Sequence record: SRR20825010_290
Length of the DNA stretch: 34,621 bases
Direction: 5' to 3' (one strand)
The notes beneath the pieces are model-generated. The model was not told where the DNA came from, made no database searches, and saw nothing but the letters and a program-made list of their open reading frames with translations. Made by a program: the position numbers and the translations under genes. This document shows positions 1-5,546 of this stretch, piece after piece; positions within the stretch are counted from its first letter, which is position 1; each line of letters opens with the position of its first letter.

Positions 1-45
1 GCGATTGAGTTTTGGTAGCGTTGATTCTGGGATTTTTCGCCTCAT
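1..45 (-). CDS. Probable 5' end of a gene running off the left edge (MRRKIPESTLPKLNR...)
   Basis: Minus frame is open from 309 to the edge. The ATG at 45 follows an A/T-rich leader and a TATCTTGC -7-like box (~73-80), the same variant seen upstream of gyrA. Upstream in-frame ATGs (e.g. 180, 222, 264) are alternatives. Confidence 0.35.
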   Translation of the reverse strand, partial: MRRKIPESTLPKLNR

Positions 46-123
46 GATAAATGATATTGTTTTGAAAGTTTTCGCAAGATAATATATTGAGAAATAGTTT
101 GTTCGAGCAGAAGAATCAATTGA

Positions 124-154
124 TGGGTATATAATGTTCTGCGTTATGTTACTT
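124..154 (+). other. Degenerate dif-like (XerC/XerD) site with a 9-bp spacer
   Basis: TGGGTATATAA-TGTTCTGCG-TTATGTTACTT; each arm matches 9/11 to the arms of the 4298-4325 site. Confidence 0.4.
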
Positions 155-371
155 AGCTTTGACCTGTAGGTGGGATTCATAGTTTTAGAGAAGGCCATTC
201 TTTTTACTTCTAAGCATTTCATATTATACTTAGTATTAGTAGGAGTGGAGCACTCATTTGGCATTTTTGGTATAGCAGTACAAGCGAAATTAGAAATAGG
301 CTCATAGACTTAGTCTTAAGTAATGAAAAGATTAAAATAGGCAGCATAAAATTTCATTGCTCATAACCTTA

Positions 372-716
372 TCACACCATTGCTTTATTACAATAAGTTG
401 CCTTCTCAAAATTCCTGATATTGATGGATAGGATAGGGACACTTGGAAACAAAAACTTTAATTCTTTGATTATCTTGTTGGACAAATGACTTTTTTGTTC
501 CGTTGTTCGGCCTTCCATGATATTGCCAAAAACGTGAATGAAATAACCTTGAGAATTTCCAACAGTATAATATTCAAAGGGATTAATTCTTACCTTAATA
601 TCGTCCTTTTCAAAAAGATGGGTTGATTCAGCTGCGTCATATACAACCCGAATAATTTCTTCAGGTGATTTCAATTTTATGATGTTTTCCGAGCAGTCGA
701 TTACGAAATGTGGCAT
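372..716 (-). CDS. 5-carboxymethyl-2-hydroxymuconate isomerase (CHMI/HpcD-like, tautomerase superfamily)
   Basis: N-terminal MPHFVIDCS (Pro-1 after Met removal), DIKVR, FIHV..I.EGRT.EQK pattern, 114 aa. Confidence 0.85.
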   Translation of the reverse strand: MPHFVIDCSENIIKLKSPEEIIRVVYDAAESTHLFEKDDIKVRINPFEYYTVGNSQGYFIHVFGNIMEGRTTEQKSHLSNKIIKELKFLFPSVPILSINIRNFEKATYCNKAMV

Positions 717-761
717 TTTGATTTCAGTTTAAATGATTGATACTAGCTAATATATTGCATA

Positions 762-1163
762 CTAAACAGTAGCGTTTTTCACCACTTTAAGTTGCCAGTA
801 AGTGGCAATAATTGTCACATATTCCAAACCAATAAGCCAAAAACTGATATCACTAAAGAAAGATAAGTGATCTCCGCCAAGTGGAATAATAAAAACAGGG
901 ACAGTAATAATTGCATCAAGCACTATGGCATTTAAAAACATAAAAAAGCCCAATACAAGACCATTGGTTTTATGTCCCTTCCTGTAGTAAATATGTGCTG
1001 CTAAGTAAGCAGCTGGCAACATAGCTACCATTAACGCTAAGTTGGCCTGAAGGTCAGGGTCATCTATTAGTGGTACATAAAAAGATCCGATAAAAACTGG
1101 AATCAACAGTACATAAACTATTATAGAGCTAACAATTGCATGCTTAATGTTTAAATTTTTCAT
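762..1163 (-). CDS. Four-TM membrane protein, DUF5367-like
   Basis: Four hydrophobic segments; LDAIITVPVFI..GG...FF.D..FW pattern recalled from this family. Confidence 0.65.
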   Translation of the reverse strand: MKNLNIKHAIVSSIIVYVLLIPVFIGSFYVPLIDDPDLQANLALMVAMLPAAYLAAHIYYRKGHKTNGLVLGFFMFLNAIVLDAIITVPVFIIPLGGDHLSFFSDISFWLIGLEYVTIIATYWQLKVVKNATV

Positions 1164-1245
1164 AATGTTTGAATTTGGGTTTTACCTATTTTAAAATGGG
1201 TGTAGAAAATTGTCCCTAATTGTATCTGAATTCGAGAAAACAGAT

Positions 1246-1278
1246 AAATAAAGGTTTAAAAAATGTAAACCTTTATTT
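1246..1278 (-). terminator. Perfect 13-bp inverted repeat, probable terminator or attenuator after the NmrA-like gene
   Basis: AAATAAAGGTTTA-aaaaatg-TAAACCTTTATTT. Confidence 0.55.
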
Positions 1279-1314
1279 TCAGGCATGACGATATCTTGTT
1301 AAACGGGTTCAGGT

Positions 1315-2157
1315 TTATAGTACTCCTGAGGCTACACTATTCCAAACCCCTGTACTTGCAGTTTCTTTGGCATACTGACTAAAATCCTTCGGCTTCCTGC
1401 CCAGCACTTTTTCTATGTCTCCGGTAATCATATTGTTACCCTTGGCATCTAGCACTTCGGTAAACAAATAGTTAATCAACCAGATGTAATCATCAGGCAC
1501 ATTGGCCTGCTTCAACATGTTGACATAAGCATCCATTGAAATTGACGTGAATTGAATTTCGCGGTCAGCTTGCTTGGCTATTTCTTGCACCACTTCTTCG
1601 AAAGTAAGCACCCTAGGGCCCGTCAATTCATACAACTGTCCGTTATGCTCTTCATTGGTTAAGGCCGCTACCACCACGGCTGCAATATCATCAGTATTCA
1701 CATACGGTACCTTTGCCTCAGCTTTGGGTAGCGCAACATGCCCTGCTATAATTGGGTCTAAAAAGAAGCTCTCACTAAAATTTTGCATAAACCAGCTCGC
1801 TCTCGCAATAGTGTAATCCACTCCCGAATGGATGACCACCTGCTCACATAACTCAGCTTCACGCTCGCCTTTACCAGAAAGCAATACGGCTTTTTTTACA
1901 CCACTTCTCTTTGCCAGCTTTATCAAAGCCTCAATCGAATCAAGTGCGCCAGGCACAGCCAAATCAGGTTGATAGGTGATGTACATTTTTTCTATGCCCT
2001 CCAAAGCCTTGCCCCAGGTGGTCTCATCATTCCAATCAAAAGGAATGGAGGCCCTTCTTGATCCTATGCGAACAGGATAGTTGAGCGTTTTTAATTGTTC
2101 TACTACTTTGCGGCCGGTTTTTCCCGTGCCACCGATAACTAAAATGTTGTTTTTCAT
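1315..2157 (-). CDS. NmrA-family NAD(P)H-binding protein (atypical SDR)
   Basis: ILVIGGTGKTG Rossmann motif, FDW.D, R.SWFMQNF, DIA, YELTGP. Confidence 0.9.
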   Translation of the reverse strand: MKNNILVIGGTGKTGRKVVEQLKTLNYPVRIGSRRASIPFDWNDETTWGKALEGIEKMYITYQPDLAVPGALDSIEALIKLAKRSGVKKAVLLSGKGEREAELCEQVVIHSGVDYTIARASWFMQNFSESFFLDPIIAGHVALPKAEAKVPYVNTDDIAAVVVAALTNEEHNGQLYELTGPRVLTFEEVVQEIAKQADREIQFTSISMDAYVNMLKQANVPDDYIWLINYLFTEVLDAKGNNMITGDIEKVLGRKPKDFSQYAKETASTGVWNSVASGVL

Positions 2158-2159
2158 GA

Positions 2160-2675
2160 CTATAATTGATTAAAATTTGTTTTTGTATTCATAAAAGTTG
2201 CTGCCAGCGCTAGTACAAATGAAAGTACCGAAAACACTGTTCTGATCATATGCAGCTTGTTCCATGGTGATTCGTAATTTTTTCTGATGGTTGCCAATTC
2301 CTTGAGGCTAAACTTATCCAGCTGCAACGTCTCTAAAGCATTATTTAGGGGTACATTGCCCATGCCTGTAACACCAATGGTTCCGATCAGATAAGTGACA
2401 GTCGCAGCAAGTAAAACCCAAAAGGTGCTCCCTGATTGATAGTGCTGCATAGTGCTCATAGCTAGTAAAACCGCGCTGCCCAAGAAGATGATTATGAATG
2501 CCGGATTGATGATCGCCCTGTTGATAGACTGCATGGTTTCCAGATAGGCGAAATCTGAAACTCTTCGAGTACCCGGTATTACTGATACAAACCAAGCAAA
2601 GAACAATCCTGCAGACAGACCAGTAAGTAATACCGCGACATACAGTGTGATTTGTTTTGTTGATAGTTCCATCAT
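2160..2675 (-). CDS. DUF1772 / anthrone oxygenase-like membrane protein
   Basis: GL.AGLFF, MQSINRAI.NP.F, NVPLNNAL, W...H.IRT motifs. Start moved to ATG 2675 (or 2672), which overlaps the upstream pseudogene stop (TAATG). Confidence 0.85.
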   Translation of the reverse strand: MMELSTKQITLYVAVLLTGLSAGLFFAWFVSVIPGTRRVSDFAYLETMQSINRAIINPAFIIIFLGSAVLLAMSTMQHYQSGSTFWVLLAATVTYLIGTIGVTGMGNVPLNNALETLQLDKFSLKELATIRKNYESPWNKLHMIRTVFSVLSFVLALAATFMNTKTNFNQL

Positions 2676-3008
2676 TATAATGCGTTTGTTGTTGTCAGCC
2701 ACTTTTTAAGCTTGGCCAATTCGCTTTGAGTTGATTTTATTACCCTTGGGCATTCTCCTTTTCACAAAAACCTGCCCTCGTAGATCTTTGTGCCTTAGTC
2801 AAGCATATTGCTATCGTGAATACTTTGCGCGGATTCCGTTTTTGGTGGCATGAATTACACTTGACCTGTAGCACCTTATAAGCCTCTTCTTTTAAGTGAT
2901 AGGCCTCGATAGCCCAAACTTGAGCAGCGCTGATCTCTTCCGAGTGATATTGGAAGGAAAACAGAGAAATGCTATTATGGTCTGTGCTTTAAAGTTTATT
3001 CGTCTCAT
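2675..3008 (-). pseudogene. Frameshifted small monoheme cytochrome c-like gene (missed by the ORF track)
   Basis: Pieces across frames: MRRINFKAQTIIAFLC / ...LKEEAYKVLQVKCNSCHQKRNPRKVFT / NMLD*GTKIYE / QVFVKRRMPKGNKI / ELAKLKKWLTTTNAL*. CxxCH at 2845-2859 with a distal MP motif. Confidence 0.75.
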
Positions 3009-3060
3009 GCTCTTTTTGTTTAAGATTATGAGACAAAGCTGCGGCTTATGCTACCGTTCT

Positions 3061-3097
3061 ATTTGTCTGAAAAGGAGTATGATTTGTTCGAAAAGGA
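3061..3097 (-). promoter_or_regulatory. Putative AraC-family operator: 16-bp direct repeats 21 bp apart
   Basis: ATTTGTCTGAAAAGGA (3061-3076) and ATTTGTTCGAAAAGGA (3082-3097), upstream of a CAGCTTTG -7-like box (~3035-3042, minus strand). Confidence 0.65.
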
Positions 3098-3955
3098 TTA
3101 CCACTTTATTTCGCTGGGCCGGAAGCCAAATTTCTTGGCAAAGGCATTGGAGAATGAACTTAGACTGTCATAACCGACATGCCAGGCGGCTTCCTGGATA
3201 GAGAGCTGATTATTTCTCAATAAATTGTGAGCGGTAGTGAGGCGCTCGTTTTGTAGGTATTTGAATACCGGTACACCAAACAATTCCTTAAAGTTTTTCT
3301 TTAGCTTAAAAGTATTCAAACCAATTTCCTTTGAGAGTTCGGAAAGGGAAGGCGGGTTGTCAAGGTTATCGGAAAGAATTTCTTTAGCACGCTGCAGTCG
3401 CTGCCTTTCATCGGCAGAAATAGTTTCTTCGCTTATAATAGAAAGCTGACCAAAAAAATGAGCTAAAAGCGAAGTCATTTGACTTTTGAAAAACACCATT
3501 TTAGCCTTTCCCTTATACTTGTTATTAAATATCTGATCTACGATATGCTGCATTTCAGGGGACATGAAAAAACTAGGTCCTTCTACATAGGCAGCTTTTG
3601 GATTAACCAACTGCTGCAACATTTCACCAAAAAGTTCGCCTTCTTGATGTGGCAACTTATCCAGATTTCTTATGGATGTAGCAATCACAATACACTCCAA
3701 AGGATTAAGCGCAGATACAGTATGAATGAATTCTACTTCATTACTGGCATAGAAAGCTAGTGTTAACCCTTTGGTATAGCTGTATTTTTGATGACTATCA
3801 CCATACTTTACTTTCAGGTCTACATTACCCGAACCGTAAAAAGCGACAGCTATTAGCGGCTCTTCAAAAGAGCAGGTATCAACGGTTTCTTCTTCTGAAT
3901 TACCTGTTTCTACCAAAATCGTAAAATCGTTAATGTCTATGACGTCTCTGGTCAT
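3098..3955 (-). CDS. AraC-family transcriptional regulator
   Basis: C-terminal double HTH: PPSLSELSKEIGLNTFKLKKNFKELFG ... AWHVGYDSLSSFSNAFAKKFGFRPS. Confidence 0.93.
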   Translation of the reverse strand: MTRDVIDINDFTILVETGNSEEETVDTCSFEEPLIAVAFYGSGNVDLKVKYGDSHQKYSYTKGLTLAFYASNEVEFIHTVSALNPLECIVIATSIRNLDKLPHQEGELFGEMLQQLVNPKAAYVEGPSFFMSPEMQHIVDQIFNNKYKGKAKMVFFKSQMTSLLAHFFGQLSIISEETISADERQRLQRAKEILSDNLDNPPSLSELSKEIGLNTFKLKKNFKELFGVPVFKYLQNERLTTAHNLLRNNQLSIQEAAWHVGYDSLSSFSNAFAKKFGFRPSEIKW

Positions 3956-4109
3956 AAATTGGCTGCTGTAGTTTCAATTGTTAATTACGAGATAATAATT
4001 GGGTTAATCGAGGCAGAAGTTAAAAATTAGACTTTTTCATCACGTCCGGAACAGGGCTGGGCAGCTTAATGAGAGCCAAGAGCTTCAATGAGAAACGAAA
4101 GCGTTCGGT

Positions 4110-4129
4110 TCCCGAGATTTCTCTTGGGA
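4110..4129. repeat. Short hairpin, REP-like remnant
   Basis: TCCCGAGA-TTTC-TCTTGGGA, an 8-bp stem with one G-T pair, followed by TGA. Confidence 0.35.
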
Positions 4130-4156
4130 TGAATATAATATAGAATTATAGAACAA
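4128..4156 (-). other. Degenerate inverted dif-like site
   Basis: Minus strand TTGTTCTATAA-TTCTATA-TTATATTCATC; the XerC-type arm is 10/11 to the 4298 site, the spacer is 7 bp and the XerD-type arm is decayed. Confidence 0.55.
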
Positions 4157-4175
4157 GCGGTCGGTGGTGTAGGCC

Positions 4176-4292
4176 GTGTTTTGCTTTTACATAAGATCAT
4201 TACCGTTATCGTACTGCACACTTTCGCAAAGGCTTCAGCGTACAAGTGACGATAACTGATCTTATGTAAACCACTACGTGGATGCAAAACAC
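4176..4292. repeat. Long imperfect inverted repeat containing two opposed dif-like sites (4184-4216, 4245-4272)
   Basis: Pairings 4176-4184/4284-4292 (9 bp), 4186-4199/4257-4270 (14 bp, perfect) and 4205-4212/4249-4256 (8 bp); 5-nt bulge at 4200-4204; side hairpin CCAC-TAC-GTGG at 4271-4281. Confidence 0.85.
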
Positions 4293-4297
4293 TATGT

Positions 4298-4325
4298 TTG
4301 TTATATAATTTATATTATGTTAAAT
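4298..4325 (+). other. dif: dif site (XerC/XerD recombination site), canonical 11-6-11 geometry
   Basis: TTGTTATATAA-TTTATA-TTATGTTAAAT; the right arm is identical to the E. coli XerD arm; intergenic. Confidence 0.85.
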
Positions 4326-4334
4326 AAAAGATCA

Positions 4335-4370
4335 AAGAAGAAGGGAGATTGTTAAACCTCCCTCTTTCTC
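4335..4370 (-). terminator. Intrinsic terminator of the gyrA-TPR operon
   Basis: Minus strand GAGGGAGGTT-TAAC-AATCTCCCTT followed by CTTCTTT, just after the TPR stop. Confidence 0.7.
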
Positions 4371-4376
4371 TCTATA

Positions 4377-5546
4377 TTATTCTCCGCCCTCTAAGGCTTC
4401 TATTCTTGCAAGGATTGCATCTCTTTTAGCATCCATTCCCAATTGGTCATATACAGTACTCAAAGGATTAAGTATGAACAGATCATTTGGCTTAGACTTC
4501 TCAGCTTGCTCAAAATTAGGCAATGCCAATCTGAACTTGACATAGGCCTCTTCACGTTTCTTATCGTAAGCTGCATTGTCAGTTAAATCGTTTGCTGCTT
4601 TAAGAATTTCAACACCTTCGTTAAAATAAACGCTACCTACTACGTAAGAAGCATCTGGATAATCAGGCTGAAGCTCTAAGGCTTTTCTTGCTGACTCCAA
4701 AGCAGCAGGATAATCCTGTGCGTTATACTGCAAGAAAGCGAGCGTGTAATATAGAATGGCAGTTTTATCGCCACTATCAATATTCTTTTGAATTCCTGCA
4801 ATAGCTTCATCCAATTTATCACCCTGAATCAAGATGTCAATTTCAAAGTCTCTATACACTTTTTCATCAGGAAACGCTTTCTGGGCCATTCTTGAATATT
4901 TCAAAGCATTATCGAAGTCTTTATTGGTCAAGTACATGTCGATCAGACCATTGTAAGCGAAGTTAGTATTCTCAAACTCTTCATTTGACTCTACTACCGC
5001 TACATAAAATGGAATGGCCTCCTCAAACAAGTCAGCATTATAAGCACTATAACCTGCATAGAAGTTCATAATAACATCCGCTTTGATCATTGCCGATAAG
5101 CTGAAGTAATTAAAGGCTCCTGCAAAATCATCTGCTTCAAAGTAATCGTTTCCTTTTTTGTTCAAAAGGTTTTGAAGAAAAATGTAACCCTCTCCACCAC
5201 CAATGAAATCACCATTTGAGTTCATCACCGGAGGGAAATATAGATCTTCCTTAAGATCCGCGTCTCCTTTTTCCACTGCAGTATTGAAGTAGGCAAATGA
5301 CTCTTTCGCTAAATCAAGGTTCTCCATATCAGCTTTAAACTGATATAACTTTGCTTTTCCAAGAATTACATATACCTCGGGATCATCTTTGGTCTCAGCA
5401 TTTTCTGAGGCCTGTTTGGCCAATGTAAGTGCTTCTGCGTATTCGCCTTTTTTAAGTGCCTTATCAGCACTTTTTAGCACTTTCTTTTGTCCGTATACCC
5501 CTGCTACAAAAAACAATAGCAAGGCGGTAAAAAATAGCTTTTTCAT
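4377..5546 (-). CDS. Secreted tetratricopeptide-repeat protein
   Basis: Signal peptide; several TPR-like helical repeats (e.g. YYTLAFLQYNAQDYPAALESARKALELQPDYPDA); position downstream of gyrA is usual in Bacteroidota. Confidence 0.88.
   Translation of the reverse strand: MKKLFFTALLLFFVAGVYGQKKVLKSADKALKKGEYAEALTLAKQASENAETKDDPEVYVILGKAKLYQFKADMENLDLAKESFAYFNTAVEKGDADLKEDLYFPPVMNSNGDFIGGGEGYIFLQNLLNKKGNDYFEADDFAGAFNYFSLSAMIKADVIMNFYAGYSAYNADLFEEAIPFYVAVVESNEEFENTNFAYNGLIDMYLTNKDFDNALKYSRMAQKAFPDEKVYRDFEIDILIQGDKLDEAIAGIQKNIDSGDKTAILYYTLAFLQYNAQDYPAALESARKALELQPDYPDASYVVGSVYFNEGVEILKAANDLTDNAAYDKKREEAYVKFRLALPNFEQAEKSKPNDLFILNPLSTVYDQLGMDAKRDAILARIEALEGGE

Follow-up and report, generated by a model that had tools for sequence, protein, structure and literature searches.

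A fold-back beside dif in Roseivirga as the probable right end of a recombinase-less cargo cassette

Background

How do four dif-like sites come to lie nested in one fold-back of about 200 base pairs (bp), and what is this segment a part of? The question is raised by positions 4128-4325 of a 34,621-nucleotide (nt) stretch of DNA from sequence record SRR20825010_290; the whole of this stretch is called the window here, and positions given without a contig or locus name refer to it. According to our analysis, the fold-back is with high probability the conserved right end of a cargo-only cassette of 4,174 bp (135-4308), which lies between the core gene greA and the chromosomal recombination site dif. 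Judged by comparison of sequences, it is one instance of a family-wide system of cassette arrays at dif. The anatomy, both junctions, the recurrence across the family, the rows of cassettes in one direction, the conserved ends around unrelated cargo and the covariation of the terminal hairpin are well supported; the enzyme at work, a single-stranded step and present mobility are points that we infer.

The window can be assigned to the genus Roseivirga from the TPR protein encoded downstream of gyrA, which is 94% identical to the proteins of R. echinicomitans and of a Roseivirga metagenome-assembled genome. Other genomes, contigs and loci are given by handles (G, C and L, respectively) where they have to be told apart.

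The fold-back as the probable right end of a cassette

In the original prediction, the fold-back had been read as a miniature element of about 200 bp. This extent proved too small: the segment appears to close off, on the right, a cassette of 4,174 bp that carries five cargo genes and has its other junction at 124-154. The layout is that of an integrated form, with a rebuilt dif (4298-4325) on one side and a hybrid site (124-154) on the other, and the same layout was found in other genera. The core gene that follows on the XerC side of the locus is the conserved greA; its start in the window corresponds to an open reading frame (ORF) in locus L001 that has both GreA/GreB Pfam domains. In a similarity search with 1-4040, positions 1-138 were found at 84-93% identity in many family genomes, 2 to 46 kilobases (kb) from their dif and on its XerC side, and positions 128-271 were similar to the left ends of cassettes. 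The flank upstream of greA (46-123) aligns with loci L001, L002, L004 and L005.

The XerC-type arm that directly follows this flank (124-134) has the same inner eight bases as the XerC arm of dif (4298-4308) and differs from it in the outer bases. A strict left-junction pattern matched in none of the five Roseivirga genomes because of mismatches in the XerD arm, and the junction was found by similarity only. At the right end, the arm TTGTTATATAA also follows hairpin C at internal array junctions in other genera, at a distance of 4-5 nt in six of the seven sequences measured. Upstream of it, 4040-4110 is similar to the GC-rich left part of what we call module A in other genera; the inverted dif-like site that belongs to this module is unrecognisable here. 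The short stem-loop at 4111-4128 has a different sequence in L005 (CCACG/CGTGG) and again in other genera (CCAGC/GCTGG), but its pairing is preserved. Pfam assigned none of the five cargo genes of the window to a recombinase, replication or phage family, and no tRNA was found in window 1-5000. The features of the cassette and its flanks are listed with position and strand.

1-45 (-): start of greA, first 15 codons; all 15 residues as at the start of the L001 ORF
46-123 (no strand): flank upstream of greA, conserved core sequence; in relatives it marks where the cassette array ends on the far side
124-134 (+): left-junction XerC-type arm TGGGTATATAA, directly after the greA flank; read as the original chromosomal XerC arm
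135-143 (+): left-junction central region of 9 nt, TGTTCTGCG; position 135 is taken as the first base of the cassette
144-154 (+): left-junction XerD-type arm TTATGTTACTT; 9 of 11 bases as in the XerD arm of dif (two mismatches)
155-200 (+): conserved left end TTAGCTTTGACC...GGGATTCATAGTTT; 76-82% to left ends of cassettes in other genera
372-3955 (-): five cargo genes, by Pfam matches, namely the following
372-716 (-): CHMI-like isomerase (Pfam)
762-1163 (-): DUF5367 (Pfam)
1315-2157 (-): NmrA-like (Pfam)
2160-2702 (-): anthrone-oxygenase-like (Pfam)
3098-3955 (-): AraC-family regulator (Pfam)
4040-4110 (+): degenerate remnant of module A and conserved right-end sequence; conserved in L001, L002 and L005
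4111-4128 (+): short stem-loop before module B, CCCGAGA / TCTTGGG
4128-4156 (-): module B, dif-like but inverted and spoiled, with a centre of 7 nt; mismatched at 5 of its 22 arm positions
4176-4292 (+): hairpin C, a 9-bp closing stem around two inner sites; 80.4 bits with covariance model R1
4298-4308 (+): XerC arm of dif, TTGTTATATAA; read as cassette-borne, with 4308 as the last cassette base
4309-4325 (+): chromosomal central region TTTATA and XerD arm TTATGTTAAAT; invariant in five of five Roseivirga
4336-4369 (-): hairpin that terminates the TPR gene; lies on the XerD side (inverted repeat I7); kept in six of six aligned sequences; core sequence outside the element

Identity of the site at 4298-4325

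The site at 4298-4325 (TTGTTATATAA / TTTATA / TTATGTTAAAT) consists of an 11-nt XerC arm, a 6-nt centre and an 11-nt XerD arm with palindromic inner arms, which is the layout of a dif site. Its XerD arm is one that we take to be equal to the XerD arm of E. coli dif. When the sequence downstream of the TPR gene was aligned for five Roseivirga genomes, one invariant block emerged, which comprised exactly 4298-4325 and stood at the same place in all five; beyond it, on the XerC side, everything was variable. The exact dif is single-copy in each of these genomes, and all five encode a XerD equivalog above the curated cut-off together with a XerC-like paralog. Allowing up to two mismatches, the 23-nt dif core was present in 48 of the 61 family genomes sampled, almost always once, as compared to one match for a reversed-pattern control.

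The position of the replication terminus was tested in one relative, the complete chromosome G062, by GC skew, which was chosen since dnaA does not lie consistently opposite dif in four complete chromosomes (G022, G023, G056, G062). Of twenty 20-kb samples, all 11 on one side of dif had a positive skew; of the nine on the other side, five were negative and two more were under +0.02, and the strand bias of long ORFs switches at dif as well. In G022 and G023, dnaA is found 9-15% of the chromosome away from dif; either dnaA is a poor origin marker there or these chromosomes are rearranged. The proteobacteria-like XerD arm agrees with Kono et al. (PMC3025954), where a dif is predicted in 19 of 19 Bacteroidetes, 14 of them by the proteobacterial profile. 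From this body of comparisons, 4298-4325 is very probably the chromosomal dif, i.e. the XerC/XerD dimer-resolution site of Roseivirga. The remaining sites had been described as dif-like as well. Only 4298-4325 is invariant among the relatives; the arms and pairings of the others are nonetheless kept and repeated in other genomes.

Several observations concern dif and its surroundings more generally. The exact dif core TATAATTTAYATTATGTTAA is carried by at least 113 viral contigs (IMG/VR loci L082-L194), many of which are 4-6 kb long, i.e. of microvirus size, and in which certain outer XerC arms recur, e.g. GAGTCTTATAA, ACTACCTATAA and GTGTAGTATAA; XerCD-borrowing phages seem to be frequent where the host has this dif. 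Away from dif, the sequence ATAAG[AC]CTCTTTATGTTAAAT, with a perfect XerD arm, occurs in three Roseivirga genomes (G003:C50:247088, G004:C48:322354, G005:C3:230578). At the start of a 12.4-kb contig, two head-to-head dif sites, both with perfect XerD arms, stand 21 nt apart (L078, i.e. G063:C1003:72-153). In many draft assemblies dif is located within a few kb of a contig end, and contigs C95 and C165 of G024 overlap and break exactly at dif, which suggests that repeats or mixed populations at the dif locus disturb assembly. In sequencing run X1, contigs over window 4293-4326 break at dif too, and a separate 9.7-kb contig with a depth of 7.7 (versus 3.7-4.6) bears a dif with three differences and another left flank; this contig may be a free or second element using dif.

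Four dif-like sites and their folding

The four dif-like sites were each found where they had been predicted, in the order D-C, D-C, C-D, C-D, where D and C stand for the XerD- and XerC-type arms. They are not equivalent copies of dif, though: one is taken as the chromosomal dif, one as its spoiled inverted partner with a 7-nt centre, and two make up a self-contained hairpin.

4128-4156 (-): outer-left site, inverted; D' 4128-4138, 7-nt centre 4139-4145, C' 4146-4156; equals module B
within 4184-4216 (-): inner-left site, inverted; forms the lower strand of hairpin C, where TTACC at 4200-4204 bulges out (5 nt)
4245-4272 (+): inner-right site, direct; 11-6-11 layout with canonical 6-nt centre; upper strand of hairpin C
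4298-4325 (+): dif proper; C arm 4298-4308, centre 4309-4314, D arm 4315-4325

The inner-right site fits ATAA-N6-TTATGTWAA without a mismatch, and the left half of the inner-left site is common to the window and L005. On folding, hairpin C yields an almost perfect site of 11-6-11 layout that has the 5-nt bulge. A repeat search recovered the mirrored outer pair, the mirrored inner pair and the 9-bp stem that joins them, all three of which had been described from the letters. The arms of the outer sites are 92% complementary over 13 nt, 4176-4184 pairs with 4284-4292 to give the 9-bp stem, and the inner sites are connected by a perfect 14-bp inverted repeat (4186-4199 with 4257-4270) and one of 8 bp (4205-4212 with 4249-4256). 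The exact 28-mer of 4298-4325 occurs once in the window, versus 0 expected.

Folded as single-stranded DNA (ssDNA), the plus strand of 4105-4330 reached -45.8 kcal/mol as compared to -18.7 +/- 3.2 kcal/mol in 200 shuffles (z -8.4), none of which was as good; the minus strand reached -41.6 kcal/mol (z -7.4). On both strands the segment is thus far more stable than its shuffles, and RNA parameters applied to 4040-4375 gave z -6.6 and -6.7 on the two strands. In these folds, module B pairs with 4298-4325 and represents the fold-back partner of dif. The prediction that 4128-4325 is non-coding and situated between the gyrA-TPR terminator and accessory genes also holds: the segment lies between the terminator of the TPR gene, itself downstream of gyrA, and the AraC-family gene.

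Modules A, B and hairpin C across the family

The XerC side of dif was compared in 36 loci. Many other genera have modules A, B and hairpin C there, in unchanging order and orientation. Module A is an inverted dif-like site with a 7-nt centre, whereas module B in other genera is an inverted site with a 5- or 7-nt centre that is preceded by a small stem-loop. When dif-like sites were counted up to 600 bp from dif, allowing 5 mismatches over the 22 arm positions, 18 inverted sites were obtained on the XerC side, against about 0.4 expected, and one direct site; the XerD side had two inverted sites and one direct site, and shuffles yielded 0.4-0.7 per class.

For hairpin C, a covariance model (R1) was built from seven sequences. 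It matched in 33 of 151 family genomes, often with several copies per genome in the same direction. In an alignment of 43 distinct copies, fitted to the structure of the model and hence favouring that structure, 92.4% of cells pair. The figure was 79.6% in shuffles, none of 500 being as high, and 35-42% with the partner shifted along. Both sides had changed in 13 of 21 pairs, amounting to 87 cells versus 21.5 in shuffles. These 87 are double Watson-Crick changes, and of 903 cells about 14 hold G-U wobbles; even with the fitted alignment, changes of this Watson-Crick kind point to pairing as DNA rather than as RNA. Copies and covariation had been proposed as a check on the original prediction, and the arms and pairings outside 4298-4325 turned out to be conserved, repeated in other genomes and covarying.

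In one genome (L249, i.e. G128:C5), three tandem copies of hairpin C were seen within about 500 bp beside dif with almost nothing between them, as if they were empty units. A pattern for module C gave 13 matches in viral contigs, none of which had flanking similarity, and these were taken as chance.

Junctions, arrays and cargo

At copies of hairpin C away from dif, the XerC arm follows 5 nt later and is succeeded by a central region of 9-11 nt, the XerD arm and the conserved stretch TATAGCTTYGG...GGGATTAATAGTTT. The central region has the consensus TGTCCTGCG and is 9-11 nt long at 16 junctions of the studied loci. The junction motif produced 43 matches in 30 of 151 family genomes (29 of 150 without the unpublished genome G116), versus 12 for a reversed-pattern control. 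A genome has up to four matches, all in a single orientation, and they are on the XerC side wherever dif is located on the same contig. The most extended row was found in G006, with five junctions, the fifth being a variant junction, plus dif, and with units of 1.0, 1.0, 3.5, 11.6 and 7.0 kb.

Twelve complete units (1.0-11.6 kb) were compared all against all. Only their ends are shared, 120-200 nt at the left with 79-86% identity and 500-700 nt at the right with 72-83% (72-86% over the whole range), and the cargo is unrelated. One unit encodes an Eco57I-like methylase, an HNH nuclease and a GHKL ATPase, another an AraC regulator, hydrolases and reductases, and yet another beta-lactamase-family hydrolases, a cyclase and a regulator. 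The cargo is defence-like or metabolic. Replication, phage and recombinase families were absent among 20 cargo ORFs of three cassettes, and none of 32 PF00589 matches, i.e. tyrosine recombinases, lay inside the arrays of G006, G061, G138, G028 and G054. The suggestion of a cassette-capture platform is borne out by relatives with rows of up to five cassettes and no tyrosine recombinase in the five arrays checked; likewise, the arrays at dif and the lack of a recombinase among the cargo examined support the idea of a Xer-exploiting element without a recombinase of its own.

Outside the family genomes, the cassette end matched none of 72,556 plasmid records and none of 50,697 phage records. In a sample of the phylum, three of 301 genomes had the junction motif, two of them already-counted family members; from these searches, a system with this junction sequence looks confined to the family.

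Units adjacent to dif are often defence-like, for instance L076:2673-5714 (G036), L206:2516-4338 (G062) and L246:3941-9409 (G138), and contain pieces such as a TOTE-type kinase-helicase, parts of a split HerA-like ATPase, or an Eco57I-like methylase with an HNH nuclease and a GHKL ATPase. When the XerC side of dif was searched for genes of ssDNA phages in several genomes, only accessory and defence-like genes were met.

The same slot in other Roseivirga

The slot between greA and dif has different occupants within the genus. Its insert measures 4.17 kb in both the window and L002, 2.0 kb in both L001 and L004, and about 2.5 kb in L005. The unit in L001 encodes a DUF285 protein. The block of five cargo genes is shared with L002 and was not found in that slot in L001, L004 or L005. 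The copies are partly decayed and mosaic: L003 and L004 hold fragments only, and L005 has half of hairpin C. The halves of this hairpin assort independently among the species. The window and L002 have common flanks and different versions of hairpin C, L005 has only the left half of the window's hairpin, and L004 has a right half of the L001 type. By analogy to attC in integrons, this hints that hairpin C may itself be a recombination point.

A dispersed repeat or miniature transposon was considered as well and rejected, since 4040-4297 occurs only at the dif locus, in single copy, in G001, G002 and G005, and is missing from G003 and G004. In R. echinicomitans, a degenerate second copy of the module B end was found 6.4 kb from dif, beyond greA (L024:1501-1529, i.e. 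G001:C50:163603-163631).

Proposed mechanism and its alternatives

Altogether, we lean moderately towards a cassette without recombinase that docks at dif and is loaded there by XerCD, possibly as folded ssDNA. The crossover would occur where the XerC arm meets the central region. The 9-nt central region and the XerD-type arm of the cassette would then end up at the far left junction (135-154), where the site should be inert, whereas the XerC arm of the cassette, joined to the chromosomal central region and XerD arm, would rebuild a working dif at 4298-4325. The next cassette would enter at this dif, so that rows grow with the newest unit nearest to dif. The differing outer bases of the XerC arm at greA, and the fact that the arm at dif is the same as the one following hairpin C elsewhere, are as predicted by a crossover at the border of the XerC arm.

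As recombinase we assume the XerCD of the host, which is likely to perform the insertion. The substrate could be a folded single strand. As in the cholera phage CTX, the attachment site and its inverted partner would anneal to each other and leave the central region as an unpaired bubble; a single strand would be exchanged by XerC, with replication completing the insertion. A folded strand is suggested by the inverted spoiled sites (module B here, A and B elsewhere) and by the self-contained hairpin C. Read from the sequences, the upper strand of the left end beyond the XerD arm and the lower strand of module A are complementary. When joined cassette ends were folded in silico, the XerC arm paired with module A or B (10-11 of 11 nt) in eight of 12 cassettes, with a gain of 3-14 kcal/mol. 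The cassettes may still be mobile today.

A number of results weigh against this scheme. Compared with shuffled left ends, the folds of joined ends have z values of only -5.1 to +1.6, and the joined ends of the window fold no better than with a shuffled left end (gain -3.9 kcal/mol, z 0.2); the copy in the window, with its degenerate module A, may be old and immobile. No gene for rolling-circle replication or transfer was found in any cassette examined (that of the window and three others). Three viral contigs (L072, L073 and L267, two of them near-identical) carry a compact inverted-pair site of the same design beside terminase genes. Tailed phages are double-stranded DNA viruses, and such contigs would allow for a double-stranded or cruciform mechanism. 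An empty slot, with the greA flank directly followed by dif, was seen in 0 of 151 genomes, which is weak evidence given the strict exact-motif pattern, and insertion is deduced from different occupants of one slot and not from an occupied and an empty pair. In the assembled contigs of three runs, which cannot show rare forms, no free circle, inversion or excision joint was seen. The covariation of hairpin C is subject to the fitted alignment mentioned above, and arm-to-arm gene conversion could keep the palindrome paired without selection on folding. Finally, three of the five Roseivirga genomes have a third Xer-like recombinase, which could be the enzyme. Given the lack of a gene that makes ssDNA, the terminase contigs, the poor fold of the window and the absence of a circle or empty slot, we favour a CTX-like folded strand with an even chance at the very most.

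The same cassette and the same XerCD could also work on a double-stranded substrate, as for the phages VGJ or TLC, or on DNA extruded as a cruciform. In that case the inverted spoiled sites and hairpin C would have an architectural or accessory role, loading extra XerCD and setting the direction so that FtsK-driven resolution cannot reverse the insertion. The inverted-pair design of the terminase-bearing contigs fits in with this, as does the lack of a gene for making ssDNA in the cassettes examined. Most of the 113 viral contigs with the dif core, moreover, have no inverted partner within 500 bp, from which double-stranded integration at this dif is probably common. However, a central region of 9-11 nt exceeds what a duplex Xer site tolerates according to the literature on CTX (PMC4246890), and a pure duplex mechanism does not predict the compensatory changes that keep stems other than the Xer arms paired, namely the 9-bp closing stem and a stem on the XerC side. 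With loops of 28-140 nt, extrusion of a cruciform would be unlikely on general grounds. We regard a double-stranded substrate as unlikely. Scars of earlier integrations by phages or other Xer exploiters, with a functionless fold-back and ordinary variable terminus genes between dead modules, are improbable. The abundance of viral contigs with the dif core, the decayed and mosaic Roseivirga copies, the poor fold of the window's joined ends and the failure to see an empty site or a circle would suit such scars, but they leave unexplained why ends are conserved at 72-86% across genera around unrelated cargo, why order and orientation do not change and why compensatory changes preserve the pairing of the hairpin; nor were remnants of phage genes found in three annotated cassettes or in that of the window.

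If XerCD were not involved, a dedicated tyrosine recombinase elsewhere in the genome, e.g. a third Xer-like paralog, would have to move the cassettes at the dif-like sites. A gene of this kind, encoding 353-355 amino acids and scoring 185-188 bits with the XerD model, is present in G001 (C2:1918-2697) and G002 (C4:262367-263137) and in part in G003 (C45:710549-711148). Yet G004 and G005 have a cassette in the slot and no paralog of comparable score, the arms of the sites are exactly those of dif, and it is at dif that the cassettes are inserted, so that we hold this explanation to be still more improbable than scars. The last one, a gene for a structured non-coding RNA, is hardly to be expected. 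It could draw on the very stable folds with RNA parameters on both strands and on the covariation, but the segment is located beyond a terminator, its conserved motifs are dif arms, its copies occur at cassette junctions only, and wobble pairs are few next to the double Watson-Crick changes. As for known RNA families, nothing in the whole window reached the Rfam gathering threshold, and with E values up to 10 only chance-level matches were obtained over 3900-4450.

Significance

To our knowledge, elements that exploit XerCD are known mainly as phages, plus a few islands, of Proteobacteria, and we know the folded attachment site (attP) from the CTX group of filamentous phages. The loci described here place a CTX-like site design in another phylum, on cargo-only units that are stacked in rows at the chromosome's own dif. 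As a tentative proposal, which we put forward as a possibility below even chances, a family of marine and soil Bacteroidota may run an integrase-free capture system of the integron kind. In it, XerCD would be the recombinase and dif the dock, and defence or metabolic cassettes of 1-12 kb, ending in structured hairpins that bear dif arms, would be excised and re-inserted as folded single strands, the newest beside dif, in rows of at least five; the fold-back of the window would be one attC-like end. If the cassettes are mobile, they would constitute a second route to integron-like capture, based on a housekeeping recombinase of nearly all bacteria, and would explain the hot spot for defence and niche genes next to dif in these bacteria. 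They would also provide an integrase-free docking site for engineering Bacteroidota, a group that is hard to manipulate.

Comparison with known systems

Within the same phylum, integrase-less insertion at dif-like sites is described for Xer-dependent proviruses of Bacteroidetes, namely the Alpavirinae microviruses BMV1-7 and the PhiCjT23-like prophages of Flavobacterium (PMC3091885, PMC9719478). BMV4-6 have an additional dif-like sequence near one end, which the authors liken to the inverted pair of CTX-type phages (PMC3091885). According to the same sources, these proviruses are viruses of 4.5-8.4 kb with replication-initiator and capsid genes between direct dif repeats, whereas the units described here lack viral genes among those examined and have a much larger structured end. 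The original prediction had stated that no such architecture was described in Bacteroidota. This statement has to be qualified, since Xer-dependent phages at dif have been published for the phylum (PMC3091885, PMC9719478). Of cargo-only cassette arrays with this end we found no description in the literature, supplements aside, where the tables of Kono et al. may list this dif.

The dif modules (pdif) of Acinetobacter are, according to the literature, gene modules without recombinase that have XerC/XerD-type sites and adaptive cargo and are thought to be shuffled by the XerCD of the host. Their sites alternate in orientation. They are mostly reported from Rep_3 plasmids, with sites of 28 bp, whereas the rows described here are chromosomal and stand at the true dif. 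The junctions here, by contrast, point in the same direction and have centres of 9-11 nt and long structured ends, and the plasmid records mentioned above contained no match.

Closer parallels exist to phage CTX and its satellite RS1. Both systems have an inverted pair of dif-like sites about 100 nt apart, one with an over-long centre and one with a centre of 5-7 nt. In CTX, attP1 has a central region of 12 bp and attP2 one of 5-7 bp, they are inverted and 90 bp apart, and neither is usable as a duplex (PMC4246890). The substrate is the folded single strand; XerC exchanges one strand, replication resolves the product, and integration is irreversible (PMC4246890). The centres here are comparable, with 9-11 nt at junctions and 5 or 7 nt in the inverted partners; the window has one of 9 nt at 135-143 and one of 7 nt at 4139-4145. 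Insertion at the border of the XerC arm of dif, with dif rebuilt on one side and an inert site on the other, and tandem build-up at dif without a recombinase of the element's own are likewise reported for CTX (PMC4246890). The systems differ in several respects. The host of CTX is Vibrio and the host here is a family of Bacteroidota; our cassettes share only non-coding ends and no gene, and those examined have no replication or virion genes. They also have hairpin C, which is self-contained and has a canonical centre of 6 nt, and in many cases not one inverted partner but two (A and B); a single-stranded form is in their case hypothetical. By analogy, then, the cassette would work like CTX at its attachment site and is not a CTX-family phage or satellite. 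It was not filed with the CTX family because replication and phage genes were looked for in the window's and three other cassettes and not found.

Integrons, with attI, attC and the integrase IntI, resemble the arrays in other ways. Both have promiscuous cargo rows in the same direction at one chromosomal capture site, beside which the newest unit would lie; each unit ends in an imperfect hairpin that is conserved in structure over sequence, and single-strand exchange resolved by replication is the proposed process. Unlike in integrons, no intI was found in the five arrays (0 of the 32 PF00589 matches) or among the five genes of the window, and the capture site is dif. The units here measure 1-11.6 kb and comprise several genes with regulators of their own, and their hairpins carry dif arms. 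Hairpin C is kept in structure over sequence and has the same orientation throughout, as would be expected of an attC-type hairpin, but bears the arms of dif.

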